Below are positions 4,734 to 61,372 of a DNA stretch of 64,000 nucleotides, piece after piece (the stretch's first letter is position 1; the number at the start of each line of letters is the position of its first letter). A program made the translations under genes and the position numbers. The DNA lies in NCBI GenBank assembly GCA_964016885.1, contig OZ024747.1, positions 33,914,001 through 33,978,000 on the forward strand, read 5' to 3'. Source of the stretch: Eledone cirrhosa. Its lineage: Eukaryota. A model generated the notes under the pieces. It saw only the letters and a program-made list of their open reading frames with translations. It had not been told where the DNA came from and did no database searches.

Positions 4734-5196
4734 GCGGGGAGCCATTTTGGTATGTGATAGGCAGTATTGTTTACCTTCAGCCTGGACAGACATTTAATGT
4801 TTATTTATAGCATACACATGAAATTCTCCAGTGCCAAGGTGATCCATCTAGGGAGTTGCTAATCTGAGGATTCTTTACGGACACGTAACCCTACCATTTT
4901 ATTTTTATTTTTATTTCATTTTTATTTTTATTTCTGCTTTATATATAGTAACAATCTCATTATCTTTCCACATATTCCGAAGATCTGCTCCATAATATTA
5001 TTCTATGTTACTTATATTTCTCTGCATCAAATCAATAACTTTCTTACAATCGATTGATCCAGAAACATTATATGGAGTAGTGAAACAATTGTAAACTGAC
5101 ATTACTATCTCCTTTCTATATTAAACTGCACTTAATGTTGATAATCTGTGACTAATGTCTTCTATGTGAATTTGTGGTCTTGATTTGCTTAACTAC

Positions 5197-9261: not shown

Positions 9262-9567
9262 TGAAAGACGTAAAATAAGAAAATTCTTTTTTGAATTTGC
9301 CACCGACCAAGTAGGCAATGATTTTTTCAATGTCCTGGAATTTAGTCCTCGCTTGCTTTTTTCCATCCACTGAATTATTTTTGTATAAGTTCCCTGTGTC
9401 CACGCATTGCCTGGGAACTTAGCTGAGAACAGATCTCCCTGATGACGAAAGGATATTTCTCCATGTTGTTCCAATCGGAAACCATGTTTATTCCCTTTCA
9501 GAAACTAATTAGTTGGAGTGAAATATTAGTAAGTAAGTAAAATTTAATAATTTTCTTATTTTACGTC

Positions 9568-9989: not shown

Positions 9990-12900
9990 AGGAGAAAGGA
10001 AAATATTTTTAAGGATCAGTTTTTCTTTTCTTTTTTTCTTTCTTTGATTCAGGGGAGGTAAATGTGATTGGCAAAAGTAGGGTTATAAAAGAAATTATAT
10101 TTTTGGAATATGGTTTTAGAGAGTATGAGTGTGTATGTATGTGAGTGTATATATACAAATACACACATGTGTGTGTGCATGTGTATGTATGTGTATTGAA
10201 GTGTGCTGTGTGTGCGTGCTTTAGTTTGTCTGTCAAGGGTCTCTTTGTAGTGGGAAATTAAAAAAGAAAATCAGAGTAAAGCATCAGTGGTGGCTTTCAA
10301 TCAGGTATTTTTGTAAAATATGTGTATGAGCAATTTCTTTCTTATTTCGTTGTGTATGTGTGTGAAGGAGAGCGAGATAATCTAATGGAGGTGATTATAT
10401 ATTTAATTTTGGTTTAAATCTCTAAAGCCCAGCAAAATCTTCCCACATTAACAAATACCACCCCAGCACTACAAAATGCAACCTCATAACATCAACACTA
10501 TGTATCCCAGAAAGAATCCACCCAGACCACTTGAACTCATTACAGAACCCTTACACAATAACAACTACAACATATACCACCCCCATCACCACATTGACTC
10601 TCATGTAAAAACAAATTAAAGACCCATACAAAACAGACAAACAGACTACAATTACAACCAAAACAACATTCCTTTTTTAGGAACGCGACTGAAATTCCAG
10701 GACACCAGATGGCCCCCACTCATGAGAAACCGAAGAAAATTAATCTTTCAAAATTATCATTAACTAACACACAAATTAACATATTAAGTAAGGGACTGAT
10801 ATTTACACCCACACCACAAAAATCTAACTTCCCCGAAATGAAAGATGACATCATGGAATTCTGCCGAAAACTCAGACTAATAGAATACTTCTCCAATGAC
10901 ACCAACACTGAAGATGAATCAATAGTGAGAAACAAAAGTGATGTATGCCCACAGAAAGGGAGGAACAGAACACTGGACACCTACTGCGAACGCACCATCA
11001 AATTTTACTATGAACAAATCACAAATAAACACAAGAAATCGAACCGCTCTAAACACGAATGGAAATAATTATTCACACTTTGAGATAAGACTGACATAAC
11101 CATCAAAGAACCCGATAAAGGGAGCACTGTGGTCAGTATGGAAACTGACTACTATAGGGACCTGGCACTTAAAATGTTAGACAACAGATACTACGAAAAA
11201 ATAGAAAACTACAAACTAACTAAAACAATGGGTGATCTAGAATTACTACAAAAAATACCGCAATAGCCGAACCACAACAGAATTTGAATACATAAGCCAT
11301 TTTAAATGTAATACAAGTGCTTTCTACGGCTTACCGAAGATCCACAATTGTAAACTCATAAACGATGCACGTGACACTTCGACTAACAAATGCTTACAAT
11401 TAACACCACCAAAATACTTAAAACTCAGACCAATTATAGCAGGCCCTGCATGTGAAACACTCAGACTTAGCAATTTCCCGGACTTCTTACTAAAGCCCTT
11501 CCTAAATCATATACAGAGCTTCATACGGGATGACCTTGATATGCTGAACCACCTACCCAAAACTGTAAGTGAAAACACTATGCTTGTCCCCTTTGACGTA
11601 GTAAACCTTTACACTAACATAACCCATAACTATGGGAATAACGCCAATCCAGTGCTGGCTAGACACTCACCAATCTGAAATACCAACACGCATCAACAAA
11701 ATCTTCATTATTGATGGACTCCGATTTATCGAAGAATCTTTCCTTACACATCTCAAAAATAATTGGAAGATATACCTAGACGATTGCATTATACTATTGC
11801 AAGAAAACATGATTACACTCGCTATTTTCAAAAATATGATAAACAACATTAACAATAACATGTAATTCCCAATGGAATCCAACTCCAAGCAATTAGCCTT
11901 CTTGGATATCCTTATTTTAAAAACAGTACCCACGGACTCCAAACAGTACCTCCTCTTCACATCGAATCACCCAAAACATACAAAACTTAACATTCCATTT
12001 AACTTAGCACCATAGTATCAGGCTCATCTAAGCGGGAACAAAGATTAAATGGACTAAAAACACACTTTAAGAGTCTTCCCACTTGACATAATTAATAACG
12101 GAATAGACAGAGCAAAACACGCACATTTTCATCAACTCAACTACCACCGAAAGCACAGAAACACAAACAATACCTTACCATATGTATCCACGGTCAGCCC
12201 CAGAAATACCGAAATATTCGACCACCTACACAAAAACCTCCCCATTCTATTTAAAGGTGAAAAAAGGAAAGATATCCTAGAAACTCACAAGATCATTAAA
12301 AGTAAAATGCAACCCAAATCACTAAAACACTTTCTTACTAGAACAAATATACACAAAACAGTCTCCAGCCTTACGGTAACAAAATGTGGAAGAACAAACT
12401 GTGGCACATACCTATACATAATTAAAGGACAAATTCACTTGAAACTCAGAGAACCTGATCTACGTAATCACATGCGGTGGTTGTCGACATAACTAAATAA
12501 GGGTGTGTCATTAAGCAAAAAATTGACCATCCATTGCCAACAAATCCGAGACGTAAACACAAGAAAAATCGCCTTAAATAGCCACATTTCAGAGAGTGCA
12601 GGAATGACCCTACCCAACTTTAAAATGATCCCCCTTTACAAGTGCTCCAATTCTTTCACACACCAATAAAGAATAAATAAAAACTATTTATTAACAAATT
12701 TAAACCAAAATTAAATATATAATCACCCCATTAGATTCTCTCTACCCCCCCCCCCCCCCTACACGCACACACACACACCACAAAATAAGAAAGAAATTTT
12801 TCATACACATATTTTCCAAAAATTCCTGATTGAAAGCCACCACTGATGCTTTAGTCTCTCTTTTTTTAATTTCCCACCACAAAGGGACCTGTGACAGACC

Positions 12901-24548: not shown

Positions 24549-24628
24549 GCCATTACCGACGGTTTCGCTGATCAAAAGATTGGAAATTCAGAGAATTTCC
24601 AATGGAGAGATACAGCTCTTCAGACAGC
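24549..24628 (-). ncRNA. Type I hammerhead ribozyme with extended stem II (family C)
   Basis: Minus strand: gctgt CTGAAGA gctg..ttggaaatt-ctctg-aatttccaa..cagc GAA ACCG-T-CGGT A atggc; all three stems pair. Confidence 0.8.
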
Positions 24629-25421
24629 TTTTCCAAACTTACTAGATATAAATCCGAGTAGAAGTAGATGTGTCGCTTTCTGCCCGGTGTATGAAATCAA
24701 GCCATTAAAATGACCCACACACAAATAGGCCATAAGAAACAGCGGGAATTATAGACTCATTAATATTTCATGTTACTAGAAATAGCAGCACGATACAACA
24801 TATTTTTCTCTCCATTAAAGGAGAATTCAAATAAATGATATAGATATTCCAGTAGGCACTAAGTACCCACGGAAATATATATGGTGTCTATAATAGTGGT
24901 TGTTCTATGGTACTAATTTGAGATACCATATATACACACACCACTTACTATGAATAATATAGATATCTATCAAACAGGTGAGGATATTTTATTAAAACAA
25001 AATTTGATAAAATATCGATGAAGAAATTATTATGTATCCAGTTTATTTTCAATTTATTTTCTCTGCATGATCTCCATATTTTATATCCAACAAAACTGAA
25101 AATGTCAGTCTTTCTATATAAAAAATTAAAACGAAAACTTACTTATCTTTTTTATTCCTCAATATTTACAAGACAAAACAATGTTGAAGAAAATTCTTTT
25201 TTCCAGCATGTTCAATTCAAAATATATTCCCATTGATTCTATTTCAGTTTTCATAATTTAGATTCAAAGGAAATATTCCAATGAGTATATTCTGCCATTC
25301 ATCTTTGTAAATTATCTTTTACTTGTAGAAATTACCTTCATGGAATTTTTGTTATTCTACGTGTTATTAAAACGATTTCTTCTTATATTGGCTACAGCTA
25401 TGTTGGATATGGCATACTTAC

Positions 25422-48759: not shown

Positions 48760-51450
48760 TTTGAAAAACCTAAAATAATCAACCTTTCAAATACAAACTT
48801 CTCAGCCCAATAAATTTAAATTCTCTCCAAAGGACTGAAATTCACACCAACACCATAATACTCTAACCTGAATGAGATAAATGACGATATCTCACACATC
48901 TGTAGAAAATTACGTCTCACAGAAGAATCTTTTGACAAGGAGAATAACGACCAATCAATTGTATGGAATAAAAGCAGCTACAACCCAACAAAAGGTAGAA
49001 ACAGAGTTCTGGACAAATTTTGTGACCACATAGCTAGTTTCCCATACTATGAACTACCTCAACGTAAACCCAAACCCAACACGAGTCGAAGGGAATGGGA
49101 GATTATCCATGAACTACAAAACAATACGGACATTATAATTAAGGAAGCGGACAAGGGAAGTACTGTCGTCATTAAGGATGCTGAACAATATAAACATTGT
49201 ATGTTCTCTCTCTTACAAAATACTAACTACTATGAAAGAGTAAAAAACTACCAGCAATCAAAAACGATGACCAGATTAAACACATTCATTTGCCGATACC
49301 AGGAAGACTTAACTAAAAAGGAGCGCGATTATTTAACACAGTTTGAATACAAAACCAGCAACCTTTACGGACTTCCGAAAATCCACAAGTGTAAAATAAT
49401 TAACGATGCCTGTAAACAATCAACCTCAACCTGCGTGAACACACAATACCCCACAGACCTTAAATTAAGACCAATTGTAGCGAGCCTACAATGTGAAACA
49501 CACAGACTAAGCAACTTTATAGACATACTACTAAAACCAATTCTCAAACACATACCAAGCCTTGTAAGAGACGATCTGCACCTCTTAAACCACTTCCCCA
49601 AACATGTCAAAAACAACACTATTATTGTGTCTTTCGATATAGTGAATCTCTACACAACGATCCCACACCAATACGGACTAGAAGCAATAGGATTCTGGTT
49701 AGAGAAATATCCCAATGAGATACCTGACAGAATAGAATAAACCTTCATCACCGAGGGATTACAATTTATTTTACAGAACAACTTTTTTGATTTCGATGGC
49801 AGCACTTACAAGCGGGGACTGCGATGGGTACAAAAGCCGCTCCAACTTATGCCAACTTAGTCATGGCATACTTGGAAGTCCAGATATATGAACAGTCCAA
49901 ATCAAAATACGGATTGAACTTCCACAAATATTTATCAGAGAATTGGAACGATACTTGGATGATTGTCTCATTCTTTGGCCTCACACACTCGACCAACTAA
50001 ATGATTTCAAAAATTGTATTAACGGCATCAATAACCACATCCAATTCACAGTGGAATACAGCCAAGATCAACTCCAATTTCTGGACATCTTAATCTTAAA
50101 AAAAGACACAAATTTTGAAACTGACATACACTACAAACCAACAGATTCCAAACAATACCTGCTATTCATCTCCAACCATCCAAAGCACATGAAGACGAAC
50201 ATCCCTTTTAACCTAGCAAGAAGAATTTGCACAATTGTCTCCAATTATGAAACGCGAAATAAAAGACTTCAAGAATTAAAGGAAATTCTACTCGAAAGAC
50301 AGTACCCACCATTACTGATAAATAATGGCATAGAAACGGCTAAAGCAATAGGCATTGATGAATTACGAAAACAGAAACAAATTCAAGGTACGTCCAATAT
50401 TCTATCATATATCTCAACACACAACCCAAGAAATGCGGAAGCTTACAACACTATTCACAAGAACATCCCACTATTGAAACAAGACCCAAGAATTAAAAAA
50501 AGCCCTTGAAACACACAAAATAATCAAAAGCAAAATACAACCGAAATCACTAAAAACATTACTCACCAATGCCAAATTACCTACCACAAACCCACAACCA
50601 ACTGTCAAAAAATGTGGTCGCTCTAATTGTGGAACCTGCACTCACCTCATTGAAGGCAACGCGTATACATTTCAATCAGGACAAAATTTTGCTGTAAAAA
50701 ATCACTTTACTTGCTCATCAAAAAATCTATTTTATGCCATTAAATGTAAAGGATGCAGTGAAGATTATATAGGACAAACTAAAGTCACACTCAGAAACAG
50801 AAGACAATTCATTGCCAACAATTACGAGACCCTACCACGAGACAGATACCACTAAGTGCACATCTAGACATATGCGCAAATAATAAGACACCAAAATTCC
50901 AAGTCTTCCCATTTTATCTTTGCGCTGACAATACAACCGACGAAATACGAATAAATAAGGAAAATATGTTTATTCAAAAATATAGACCAGCATTAAATAT
51001 GGTTTAATATACATTATGTCAACACCATAACATGCTTAGCACACACCCCCCACACACATAACTCCCTCCTCCATTTCTACTAACAGAATCATTTTCCTAC
51101 ACACACACAGACACACAAAAAAATATATATTCTCTCCATATTAACATGCTAACCATACTCTCACACACATATACACACACACATAACATCCATACACATA
51201 CACAACTCCCTCCCACATTTCTTCTAATAGAATCATCTTCCTACACACACACGCACACACACAAACAAGCACACAGATAAACATACATATCTCTACTTTC
51301 TTTATTTCAATAGAAAGTCTGAATTCTAACACCCCAGCGAACCAGCCATATTCACTGAACCAGAACAATTCTCCCCATCCTATTTTTCTTGACCATTATC
51401 TTTTGTTTGGCACAAAATTATCTAAAAGGCTACAAAATAAATTCCCAAAT
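48760..51450 (+). mobile_element. Penelope-like element 2 (Neptune-type), 5' truncated
   Basis: LSKGLKFTPTP, IIKEADKG, YGLPKIHK, SFDIVNLYTTIP, GTAMGTKAAPTYANL, RYLDD, CGRSNCGTC, NLFYAIKCKGCSEDYIGQT (GIY-YIG with CCHH); coding ends ~51005. Confidence 0.93.
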
Positions 51451-51539: not shown

Positions 51540-54500
51540 ATGAAACGATCAACACATACTTTACGAATAACACAAACCTAATTCAAACAAACGAGGAGCC
51601 ATGTAGCACAGATACACTAGCAACATACAAAATTAAAAACCAAATAATACCACAATTGAACACATCACTCAGAGACAGAAAATTCTCCGTTTGGAAGATG
51701 ATCCAAAACAACAACAAAGCGGAGCTTTATGAAAAATGGTTCAATTCATCCCCATTAATTCATACCCGCAAACTACAGATTAAACCCATCCCAGATGAAC
51801 CCGAGACGCAAAGACGACTAAGGGAATGAATGGCTCTGGAATGAATGAAGAGAGGAATTGAACTTGTAAAATTGAGGGCTCGGACAAATGAGGATAAAAT
51901 AAAATCCCTCGACAAAGAGATCAACCAAGAAATTAACATAAAGACTCAAGGCACCAACCTAGAAAATATCTTTAAACTATGGATAGAGAATTGCAACAAG
52001 GAACTGAAATCCCTTCAACGCTGGGAAAACAGCGAAACTTGGTTTTTGAACTATGGAACAATCTTTCAAACAGAATACGCTTCTAACAACTCCTTCATAA
52101 AAACAAGAAAACCTAAACACCACTCAGACACAGTTCGACAACCAAAAAAAAAAAAAAAAAAACACAAAATTCTCTCCTACCAAAAAAAGAAGGCAACACC
52201 TTACCTTTACCTCTTAATCCAACCACGCAGCAACTACGCGGATACCCATGCAACTTACAAAGAAATAAGATACAATTACCTCCAGGATGGACATTACAAA
52301 TTCCCTCCACGATCCCGAACCTTCAATAACAACAGCAGGGAACAACACAACCACACGAGACAACCCAGCATCAGCAACCGACACAATTTCCTTAATCATT
52401 TTTTAGACCCAGTACACAGACACTGTGAAACGAGATGACACAAGACATACAGGAGAGACAAAAAGTAATACAAGTCATACATTTAGCCACTAAAGAACTA
52501 ACAACCGACCAAATCAACATACTCTACAAAGGGCTGAAATTTACACCGACGCCCAAGCATCCAAACTACTCCGAAACGAATGAAGACATTGCAGAGTCTG
52601 TAGAAAATTAAGACTTAGTGAGGAACTACACAACCAGTACAGTGAGGACGATTCACCAGCGAGAAGTAGAAGCAACTACACCCCATCAAAAGGTAAGAAC
52701 CCATTTCTAGACCAATTCTGTGAACACATTACAAATTATCCATATCAACACCTACACAGACATAAACACCAGCCAAACTTCAACAAGAAAAAATGGGATG
52801 AGCTGAACAGATTAAAGAATGATAAAACTACAACAATCAAAGAGGCAGATAAAGAGAGTGCCGTAGTACTTAAGGAGACAGAATATTATACAACCCCAGT
52901 ACTCTCATCTTTAGAAGACGAAACATACTACGAAAAGTCTCAATACTACAGCCAGCAGAAAATAATGAGAAACCTAAAAACTCTGATAAACTTTTTAAAG
53001 AGAAGGACTTACCGACAACGAATACAACTATATCACTAACTTCAAAAGCAAATGCAGCCTTTTCTATGGTAACCCTAAGATACACAAAAGCGAAAATATA
53101 AGTAAGGCATGCAAGGAAGCCACAGATATATTCATCAATGTCCCCTCACCTAATGACCTCAAATTAAGGCCGAAAATAGCAGGCCCCACATTCGAAACCC
53201 ACCGCATCAGCAACTTCCTTTATATCCTATTAAAACCATTCTTGAGACACATTAAAAGCTACATAAGGGACGACCTTCATAGGCTCAACCACCTCCCCAA
53301 AACATTTAATAATAAACATAACCTACTAGTGTCTTTTGATGTAGTCAACCTATATTTCAATATCCCACACAACCTAGGAATAGAAGCAATCCAATTCTGG
53401 TTAGAAAATTACCCCAATGAACTCCCACACCGCACCATAAAAGAATTCGCAATAGAAGGGCTAACATTTATCTTGGAGAATAAGTAATTTGTATTCAATG
53501 CCAAATCCTACACACAGAAATCCAGGACTGCCATGGGCGCGAAAACGGCCCCCTCTTACGCCAACCTTGTTATGAGCTATCTGGAAATCACCCTCTACCG
53601 AAAAGTACTAGATAAATACGGAATGTCTTTCTACCTCTACATAGAAAGTAACTGGAAGAGATATCTGGATGATTGTTTCATCCTCTGGAATGAAAGTATG
53701 GAAAGACTTATTGAATTTAAAACACTTCTAAATGGACCCAACACAAACATTCAATTTACAATGGAATACAGCCATGACTTGAGCAACTTCCTTTCCTCGA
53801 CATCCTTATACAGAAAACTAACAACAAAATAGAAACAGACATATGCTATAAGCCCACAGACTCCAAACAGTATCTTCCATTCAACCGATGCCACCCGAGA
53901 CACACTAAAATAAACATACCTTACAACCTAATCAAAAGGATCAGTACAATAGTATCTAATAGGAACACCTGCTACATACGACTAGAAGAACTAAAGGACA
54001 CACTCATTAGCAGAAACTACCCACCACCACTAATTAACAATGGATTCCAACGTGTCCTAAAACTCTGTATCGAGGATCTTAGACATCCTAAACTAAAGAA
54101 TGAATTGCAACTGAAAGCTCTACCTTACATCTCCATACACTGCCCGCTTAACAATGAGGCATTCGACACCATCACCCAGAACATACCTTTACTAAAAAGA
54201 TACATAAGAATGAATCAAATCCTTCAAACACACAACATTATAACGAGCAAACGACAACCCAAATCAATGAAAAACAACCTTACACAGGCCAAAGATCAGC
54301 CGATCTTAACAATGAATCCTACAGTAAAACAATGCGGAAGACCCAACTGTGGTATATGTATCAACCTAATCAAGGGATCGGAGTTCTACTTCAAACAAGG
54401 ACAACCCTTTACAGTTAAAATATAACTTCACATGCGCATCAGAAAATCTGATTTATATGTTGACTTGCTCAGGTTGACGAGAGCACTATGTAGGAGAGTT

Positions 54501-59384: not shown

Positions 59385-59537
59385 TATAAATAATATAAGA
59401 TCAAAAGATGGTTAAAAGAGTTCCAAGTATTTTATTATGCGCATCTCAAAAACAAATATCATCATGGGATGATATTTGTTTTTGAGATGCGCATAATAAA
59501 ATACTTGGAACTCTTTTAACCATCTTTTGATCTTATA

Positions 59538-59546
<9 letters not shown>
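59385..59546. repeat. Perfect palindrome, 79-bp arms, 4-nt loop
   Basis: tataaataatataagatc...aaatatcatc ATGG gatgatattt...gatcttatattatttata. Confidence 0.9.
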
Positions 59547-59601
<55 letters not shown>

Positions 59602-59672
59602 CGAAGGAAATGTGGTAAGGAACCAGGTGGACCATAACGCACCAGCTCAGCTGTCGGGGTCTTACTGGTTCC

Positions 59673-59838: not shown

Positions 59839-60131
59839 TGAAGTTGTATATATATATACACCTATGAAAAACTCTCCAAATTACAACCATATGGAAAAAA
59901 AGAGAGCTAAAATGCTGCTACAGCTTATATATATCTTTATACATGTGTGTGTGCATATGCATAAGGCACAGACACACAAGTACATACGACACCATCATTG
60001 AAAATAGATGCATATGGTGATGCACTCCATCAGCCACACAGTAATAAAATAGAAATTTGAGAAGAAAAAAAATCTTTTTCGATTTTCATAAACATTTTAT
60101 TGAATTAACTGTATTATCTATATTCAACATC

Positions 60132-61032
60132 ATACCAATTGTGTATGGTTGACGGTATCTTTAGTCAGTTTCTACATGCTGTTGAAATGCTGGGTAAATA
60201 CCCTATTGGGGTCAACCGCGAAGAGGCCGCTTTCGGTTATTTATCAAATATTGCTTCATAGGAGCCTTTATTCTTATAGCCTGGTCTAAATGATTTTTTA
60301 TATGGTTAATTATGCTAATTGGGAGAGGAAATGGTATATATTTTATCTAATAATTCTAAGGTCATGATTAATGATATATTGCTCTGATTATTTAATTTAT
60401 TAACTCTTCGTTGAGCCACATCGTATCCAGGTGCCACATATATATCTGTGACTTTATGTATATGTAAATCTCTATATTTAATAATCTCCCGTTGGGTTGA
60501 GATGCAATTGGGCGATATTGGGCTGCGCTTTCTAGCAACCAGCCTACTCGCCGTAAGCAAATAATCACATTCTTTCTAACTTGACCACTGCCACGTCATG
60601 ATTCTTAGCCATTTTTAAAATCTATTTCTGGCGCGATCGCTTTGGAAAATTAACTGGCCTATTGAGTTTGTCTCCTGATGAGTTCGTTACTCTAGATTCA
60701 TCATTAATAATAGGATATCTCAAAATACGAACGAAACCATGGTAGAGTTGTAATTACGGTGTGTAAACGTTTTTTCTAACTTTAAATTTATACCTAATTG
60801 TGTATGGTTGACGGTATATATATAGTCAGTTTCTACATGCTGTTGAAATGTTGGGTAAATACCCTATTGGCGTCAACCTCGAAGAGGCTGCTTTCGGTTA
60901 TTTATCAAATATTTCTTCATAGGAGCCTTTATTCTTATAGCCTGGTCTAATTGATTTTTTATATGGTTAATTATGCTAACTGGGAGAGGAAATGGTATAT
61001 ATTTTATCTAATAATTCTAAGGACATGATTTA

Positions 61033-61039
<7 letters not shown>
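60132..61039 (+). repeat. HHR family F: ~659-nt monomer plus ~250-nt repeat
   Basis: Direct repeats 60132-60379 and 60790-61039 flank a segment carrying an HHR. Confidence 0.88.
60672..60747 (+). ncRNA. Type I hammerhead ribozyme, family F, intact core
   Basis: ctc CTGATGA gttcgt-(39 nt)-acgaac GAA ACCATGGT A gag. Confidence 0.85.
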
Positions 61040-61097
<58 letters not shown>

Positions 61098-61279
61098 CAT
61101 GCATATATATATAGGAACAAGTATGACCCAGACGGCAGAGATCAAGCCGTTTCGACGGCTTTTTGGGCTTGAGCTCTGTCGTCGGGGTAATACTTGTTCC
61201 TATTAGCCACTCCAATACCCTAAGTATTGAGTACTTTGGTGCGTTATAGTCCATCTGGTTCCTTACCACAATTCCTTCG

Positions 61280-61372
<93 letters not shown>

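Follow-up and report, generated by a model that had tools for sequence, protein, structure and literature searches.

A decayed retrozyme of Eledone cirrhosa whose hammerhead family has an extended stem II arm and a predicted bulge-to-internal-loop pseudoknot

A repeat on the forward strand of a 64,000-nt stretch of Eledone cirrhosa DNA (GCA_964016885.1, contig OZ024747.1, positions 33,914,001 to 33,978,000; this whole stretch is called the window, and coordinates refer to it) contains a hammerhead ribozyme motif with a large stem II. What kind of element is this repeat, how did it come to lie here, and what does the large stem II do? The insertion is 909 nt long (60132-61040, +) and consists of one monomer plus a 248-nt repeat of the monomer start, ~1.38 monomers in all. 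Repeat alignment placed the first copy of this terminal redundancy (monomer positions 1-248) at 60132-60379 (+) and the second at 60790-61040 (+), with 94.4% identity across 251 columns; 224 nt match at 95% with a spacing of 661, and the period varies from 658 to 661 nt with two small indels. The preliminary description had given a ~659-nt monomer in 1.4 units between ~250-bp direct repeats, which the period and the alignment bear out.

The 5' end of the insertion joins unique DNA, and no target-site duplication was seen at the locus. The second copy of the redundancy stops at the main fixed 3' end of the family, ~295 nt past the predicted cut site, and the 3' junction lies in a (TA)n microsatellite (61035-61113, no strand assigned), which the junctions of other loci identify as the insertion target of the family. 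ARAGORN returned no tRNA. Short pieces of another (TA)n-targeting repeat flank the insertion in opposite orientation (59600-59672 and 61114-61281), and this second repeat also lies beside a related copy at locus L050. At 59385-59546 there is a perfect 79-bp inverted repeat with a 4-nt loop, which ends in (TA)n and resembles the flank of a short-armed ATGCGCAT hammerhead family.

The motif is a type I hammerhead on the forward strand, with CTGATGA at 60675-60681, GAA at 60733-60735, ACCATGGT at 60736-60743 and A17 at 60744; it thus has the CUGANGA core, the GAA, the A15.1-U16.1 pair and the NUH triplet of that type. Proximal stem II, identified from the motif and by structural alignment, pairs GTTCGT (60682-60687) with ACGAAC (60727-60732) and is opened by G-C. 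The core, the 6-bp stem II and GAA-ACCATGGT-A had all been described beforehand as they stand in the sequence. Stem III is the self-complementary ACCAUGGU, which together with GAA and A17 fills 60733-60744 (+), and from the hammerhead consensus the cut is predicted at 60744/60745, after a GUA triplet; sections of PMC1636495 list GUA as a natural hammerhead cleavage triplet. The two strands of stem I lie at 60669-60674 (+; family comparison and folding) and 60745-60750 (+; family comparison) and form 3 bp, CTC/GAG.

Between the stem II strands are 39 nt (60688-60726), as the preliminary description had counted, but they are structured rather than a plain loop. Folding and covariation indicate an internal loop whose 5' strand occupies 60688-60693 (+) and includes ACTC (60689-60692), a predicted pseudoknot partner; folding and structural alignment give a distal hairpin at 60694-60720 (+), and the A-rich 3' strand of the internal loop, with the 3' strand of proximal stem II, follows at 60721-60732 (+; folding). 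The other predicted partner, the 5' strand of a loop 1-loop 2 pseudoknot suggested by covariation, is GAGT in a bulge of stem I (60664-60667, +).

The hammerhead had been called intact, which is true of its conserved core but not of its periphery. The substitutions at 60703, which breaks one pair of the distal hairpin, and at 60748, in the 3' strand of stem I, are private to the window copy, each seen once among 53 distinct copies of the same length. The 3-bp stem I is likewise real in this copy but is a product of decay, since stem I of the family has 5-6 bp. In a 122-nt frame the probability of stem II was 0.05 for the window copy versus a family median of 0.81; its 70-nt core alone folds correctly, indicating that the misfolding depends on context, and its 101-nt hammerhead region folded no better than shuffles. 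Judging from these folding models, the two private changes probably lower the ribozyme activity of the window copy. Self-pairing of the unit RNA gave a z of -0.48 for the window copy and was modest in nine genomic units, with z from -4.5 to +0.2 (12 shuffles each). Finally, the window copy has one hammerhead, not the two consecutive hammerheads by which Li et al. recognise an active copy, and because of this it could not release a unit RNA alone.

An exact 15-mer from the 3' half of the hammerhead occurred 2,661 times in the 3.0-Gb genome (G000) versus once in the reversed control, and the core plus 3' half at a spacing of 35-65 nt identified at least 2,417 long-armed hammerheads in that genome versus one in the control; the match is therefore beyond chance. 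The same pattern found 36 chance loci in a metagenome scan, none with both stems of at least 3 bp. Copies 90-95% identical to the window copy and diverged subfamilies share one build, which we call family F. Its unit monomers (21 units compared) are 72-99% identical, 632-723 nt long and have a GC of 0.34-0.36. Each non-coding unit contains one type I hammerhead; the longest ORF in nine unit monomers is 26-81 aa, the element lacks the internal RT and GIY-YIG ORF of an autonomous Penelope-like element (PLE), and 5' of position 1 the copies continue with the end of the monomer itself rather than with a gene. As in other retrozymes, dispersed monomers, dimers and multimers were found and GC is below 50%. 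The longest array, 30 kb at G000:C1:92985600-93016000 (L279-L282), holds 44 head-to-tail units spaced by 656-667 nt and shows the same inverted head and the same 3' end as single insertions; its sub-repeat patterns suggest later unequal crossing over. Because tandem non-coding units with type I hammerheads are what sections of PMC7229834 describe as non-LTR retrozymes, we file family F there: the feature in the window is a decayed member of a large non-LTR retrozyme clade, a known class of element.

The insertions are strikingly uniform at their terminal ends. At 40 position-ordered loci, 56 of 64 such ends fell at one of two monomer positions, ~248 or ~349, and (TA)n follows in 55 of the 56; both strands were present at 19 of the loci and two tandem hammerheads at nine. 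Fixed internal 3' ends, 5' truncation, inverted heads, partial tandems and (TA)n targets are thus all found, as expected of an element mobilised by Penelope, and parts of PMC8557442 give partial tandems, inverted 5'-truncated heads, alternative tails and a (TA)n bias as a PLE signature. The template was examined with 90 copies picked solely on a 3' end joined to (TA)n, of which 41 extend past the predicted cut site and 52 have an inverted 5' partner. Among these 90 copies 5' ends did not pile up at the predicted cut site (one exact, four within 10 nt), and the truncation hazard was 0.11 before the site versus 0.10 after it. A candidate fossil mark of the cut, an apparent excess of ends just past the site (7 of 29 within 48 nt), was not confirmed in the 90 copies. 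Because of the read-through and the absence of a rise in truncation at the site, the usual template is not the cleaved linear monomer; a circular or uncut multimer template fits. An anole PLE studied in vitro has two internal RT starts and uses unprocessed RNA as its main substrate (PMC11167929), with which read-through of the cut site is consistent.

The preliminary description regarded the large stem II as an insert in the loop that might be lineage-specific. It is instead a structured extension, and the idea of a lineage-specific design was assessed inside one genome. Family F has a stem II arm of 46-59 nt, a range that holds among the 100 matches listed, and 64 of 65 distinct copies fall within 47-59 nt, the exception having a 33-nt deletion; no version shorter than 35 nt was found by inspection among the family rows examined. 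The arm starts with 6 bp, continues with a 6x6 internal loop and ends in a distal hairpin of ~9-10 bp, and internal loop and hairpin are kept across subfamilies 72-99% identical. Across 29 representatives, 86.8% of the whole structure was paired, versus 29-50% for slid partners, and both partners had changed in 9 of 22 pairs; the pairing figure is conservative, as some subfamilies are shifted by one column in the MAFFT alignment. By compensatory change, stem I was 98% and stem II 81% paired, in a three-helix layout with an open stem I. Conservation of the long stem II, foreseen at the outset, is thus borne out both by its length and by compensatory change in a paired arm. Letter conservation is among the lowest in the ribozyme region (0.71-0.78 per 30 nt) and highest around the fixed 3' ends (0.90-0.96).

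Animal entries in File S2, part of PMC8557442, have a loop II of 3-10 nt, versus 35-47 nt in family F, where this length is made up of an internal loop and a hairpin. The preliminary description had called such inserts atypical for minimal hammerheads; the difference in length stands, but with an 8-nt palindromic stem III and a predicted loop contact the motif is not a minimal PLE hammerhead (min-HHR). Sections of PMC1636495 and PMC2632901 provide precedents in plant subviral RNAs for a long helix II with internal loops.

Large stem II arms had also been said to recur in other families of the window, and they do so at 4977-5093 (+), 9439-9514 (+) and 24623-24554 (-), although the labels C, D and PLE2 then given to them are not tied to coordinates. 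The hammerhead at 24554-24634 (-) has a 50-nt arm, a 9-nt stem III and a private change in its predicted pseudoknot strand, and belongs to an abundant family with 1,840 first-look candidates. The one at 9420-9520 (+) lies between two (TA)n tracts; its arm measures 55 nt, stem II has C.A at its base, the palindromic stem III is 10 nt long and a pseudoknot of 5 bp is predicted. At 4977-5100 (+) there is a hammerhead-like motif with a CCGAAGA core, a 98-nt arm and stem III ACAATTGT, whose relatives at L066 and L346 have 94-nt arms. Elsewhere in the genome we observed a young 483-nt retrozyme family (L133:1080-1260, L229-L258), with at least 40 copies 100% identical over 181 nt and many tandem dimers, and hammerhead families with arms of 84-116 nt in which no pseudoknot was detected (L352, L400, L402, L115, L176 and L178). 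Short-armed hammerhead families (13-36 nt) are also common. The palindromic stem III of these other families is not counted as evidence, the census scan having required it.

In family F, the GAGY that directly precedes stem I on its 5' side matches, as a complement, the RCUC carried by the 5' strand of the internal loop, and 4-6 bp are predicted. Parsing was anchored on GAG and CTC and succeeded for 124 of 147 distinct copies (23 were not parsed). The fourth pair was U-A in 71 of the 124, C-G in 47, U.G in four and unpaired in two, and the fifth was U-A in 22, G-C in 15, A-U in 12, a wobble in eight and unpaired in 67. The five columns were 84% paired compared with 20-50% when slid, and the fifth pair was unpaired in 14 of 28 cells. 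On a tree of flanking sequence (75 rows), the switch from U-A to C-G is essentially one event, with a U.G row, which leaves roughly a single clean double change for the fourth pair, besides one or two for the fifth; a test of independent pairs (two pairs) gave p 0.5. The same upstream strand can alternatively form 5 bp with the 3' side of the arm.

Under one uniform rule, pairing of at least 5 bp was present in 5 of 12 long-arm types and fell below that in the other seven; the subfamily of the window copy gave 4 bp against a background of 0.26 (single-family backgrounds 0.000-0.34). Other families, however, pair different words in this position. The family at 24623 has GGAAA/UUUCC, kept in the 74% relative L397, the young 483-nt family has AAAGA/UCUUU in the same layout, and the motif at 9439 has GAGAA/UUCUC. 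A fourth family, retrieved once the pseudoknot had been proposed, pairs over 9 bp in one copy of four, as a hairpin that encloses the core, and shows runs of 4-5 bp in the other three. A triple helix is a possible reading of the U-rich loops in two sister families. The families with other words lend independent support to the pseudoknot, and we consider the loop 1-loop 2 contact quite probably real and, if so, considerably more likely to activate the ribozyme than to attenuate it. No description of a bulge-to-internal-loop type I animal hammerhead was found in the literature searched, which lay outside subscription papers and bioRxiv supplements.

The reading that we favour, with somewhat better than even confidence, is that the window holds a decayed retrozyme that was pasted into (TA)n by a Penelope-like retrotransposon, and that the stem II arm braces the ribozyme by means of the predicted pseudoknot. 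Tandem copies would be transcribed as multimers, in which stem I (5-6 bp, with its GAGY bulge) would dock onto stem II (5-6 bp, with the RCUC internal loop and hairpin) through 4-6 Watson-Crick pairs; this predicted docking would replace the usual loop 1-loop 2 contact. Two hammerheads would then pair via ACCAUGGU into a stable stem III and cut after GUA, producing unit RNAs that are perhaps circularised. A Penelope-type RT/endonuclease would nick (TA)n and begin copying ~295 or 395 nt past the cut, and read-through of the cut site on a circle or uncut multimer would yield more-than-unit copies such as the one in the window. For stem III, a 2-bp monomer hairpin was calculated at +2.9 kcal/mol versus -11.2 kcal/mol for an 8-bp duplex between tandem ribozymes, and on this model a dimer step through the palindrome is likely, not certain. 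The 8-nt palindromic stem III that had been pointed out is indeed present, but it is not a novelty: parts of PMC4209133 and PMC6765202 report a small palindromic helix III and dimer cleavage for PLE hammerheads. The dimer step may not be needed, because a stem III of 2 bp does not keep invertebrate retrozyme hammerheads from cleaving as monomers (PMC7229834, in part).

It is unlikely, in our estimation, that the same element instead uses the loop-loop pairing or the alternative pairing of the arm as an off-switch, with cutting only in dimers or upon RT binding and with circles left intact. The pseudoknot of the plant satellite RNA satRPV is reportedly the structure that attenuates its cleavage. 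Its (+) hammerhead combines a helix II that is long and looped with a pseudoknot between loops 1 and 2 (sections of PMC1636495 and PMC7936874), and titles of satRPV papers report an attenuating alternative structure and a need for a double hammerhead. The 9-bp pairing of the sister family, with its hairpin enclosing the core, and the lack of a pile-up of ends at the cut site are also consistent with a switch, as is the hammerhead of the anole PLE, PAc, which cleaved only with its protein (PMC11167929). However, disruption of the contact cut activity 20- to >100-fold in the pseudoknot hammerheads tested in the part of PMC3088659 concerned, and the pairing in family F is short and compatible with stems I and II.

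Quite unlikely is the possibility that the arm is a conserved hairpin with another job, such as protein or RT binding or stability of the circle, and that the pseudoknot is chance complementarity. The few independent covariation events, the 7 of 12 long-arm types without the pairing and the backgrounds of up to 0.34 (from 0.000) count in its favour. It does not sit well with a variable fourth position that is unpaired in only 2 of 124 copies and has a U.G intermediate, nor with five families that have different complementary words in similar register, given 20-50% pairing in slid controls.

The mobilising element was sought among the PLEs of the genome, in which there are several families with RT and GIY-YIG and some intact 784-aa ORFs. 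Among 118 loci that bear a PLE or neighbour one, covering a small part of the genome's PLEs, no PLE end with homology to F was found; these loci comprised 38 around a PLE protein query, 60 from the L050 PLE and from GIY-YIG, and 20 longer GIY-YIG regions, and the queries were made without a published Hydra-clade protein. F-like DNA near PLEs was seen only as separate neighbouring insertions, and we infer mobilisation by a PLE from the insertion pattern only. One PLE family (L151-L153) has many intact 784-aa RT-GIY-YIG ORFs with an upstream open frame of 351-455 aa, and occurs as tandem and inverted copies in which the hammerhead scan found none; the tail of one copy ends on (TA)n adjoining an F insertion (L159). 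The window itself has three broken relics of PLE RT/endonuclease (10598-12456, 48763-50699 and 52375-54425, +) whose proteins are 40-57% identical to one another, and none of the six PLE-like ORF pieces in the window matched Pfam.

We consider it very unlikely that family F is the truncated pseudo-LTR end of an autonomous PLE rather than a self-standing monomer, despite its PLE-like insertion pattern and the similar stem III of Hydra-1_oBim (File S2, part of PMC8557442). The copy at L050 adjoins a PLE endonuclease region and was considered as a partner; this join was rejected, since it is a microhomology of 4 nt and occurs in one copy of that PLE out of 30. Long copies return into the monomer's own end, for up to 44 units, and no F-linked ORF was found in the 70 position-ordered loci save one unrelated PLE flank. 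That the hammerhead match is chance and the repeat an ordinary satellite is scarcely credible: Rfam gave no hammerhead match in the whole window at the gathering threshold or in 60100-61100 at E 10, the models probably being defeated by the long stem II arm, and the 101-nt region folds like shuffles, but 2,417 versus one, compensatory changes in all stems and the lack of stems in the 36 metagenome matches refute this reading as far as sequence can.

The retrozyme of our preferred reading has close relatives. Metazoan non-LTR retrozymes, as sections of PMC7229834 and of the preprint of Li et al. (2026, 10.64898/2026.07.22.740005) describe them, are like F in their non-coding, low-GC tandem build with a type I hammerhead per unit, and occur as monomers, dimers and long arrays in thousands of copies with a proposed PLE partner. 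The 632-723 nt unit of F exceeds the 170-400 nt of the invertebrate RNAs that were tested (PMC7229834) and falls inside the preprint's 51-972 bp; F differs from these retrozymes, so far as those sections go, in its 46-59 nt arm and in that no target-site duplication was seen, and it is known here from DNA alone. PLE hammerheads (Craig 2021, parts of PMC8557442) likewise have a small palindromic helix III and a helix II of at least 6 bp, and the PLEs described there resemble F in (TA)n targets, partial tandems, inverted 5'-truncated heads and alternative 3' ends. In contrast, F has no ORF, and its 3' ends are ~100 nt apart versus 30-40.

As to the predicted contact, the satRPV (sCYDV-RPV) (+) hammerhead resembles F in that its helix II is long and interrupted by internal loops and its loops 1 and 2 make a base-paired contact; it belongs to a plant satellite RNA and has a 6-bp helix III and an AUA site (PMC1636495 and PMC7936874, in part), whereas the type I motif of F lies in the genomic DNA of an animal retroelement, and each of its two partners sits in an internal loop or a bulge. 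Watson-Crick contacts between domains I and II as in F are also described in parts of PMC3088659, PMC7936874 and PMC2632901. Among these, toad and termite HDV-like hammerheads have a 5-bp helix I, a 6-bp helix II and a 4-bp contact, as in F (PMC7936874), and the CChMVd minus strand, like F, makes its contact via an internal loop of domain II (PMC2632901). The pseudoknot hammerheads in these sections either belong to type II or III or make the contact through a terminal loop on one of the two sides, whereas F is type I, connects the bulge of stem I with the internal loop of stem II and has a palindromic, dimer-type stem III. What is new here is the extended stem II and the predicted bulge-to-internal-loop pseudoknot, in an element class already known.

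More tentatively, and at somewhat less than even confidence, we suggest that several retrozyme families share an undescribed type I design, a kiss of 4-9 bp between bulge and internal loop in which the letters differ, which may serve as a tunable brace or a monomer/dimer switch, and which, being invisible to Rfam and to short-loop descriptors, may leave many thousands uncounted in invertebrate genomes. Standard scans do undercount such ribozymes, as Rfam is silent on a motif present more than 2,400 times, and the design of this ribozyme differs from published animal examples. Templates that are circular or uncut are supported by the 41 of 90 insertions that read through the cut site. If the pseudoknot is real, one genome would offer a natural series of at least five families, one of them young and with identical copies. 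Such a series would bear on how tertiary contacts and a palindromic stem III set monomer versus dimer cleavage, and hence on what the hammerheads of PLEs and retrozymes do.
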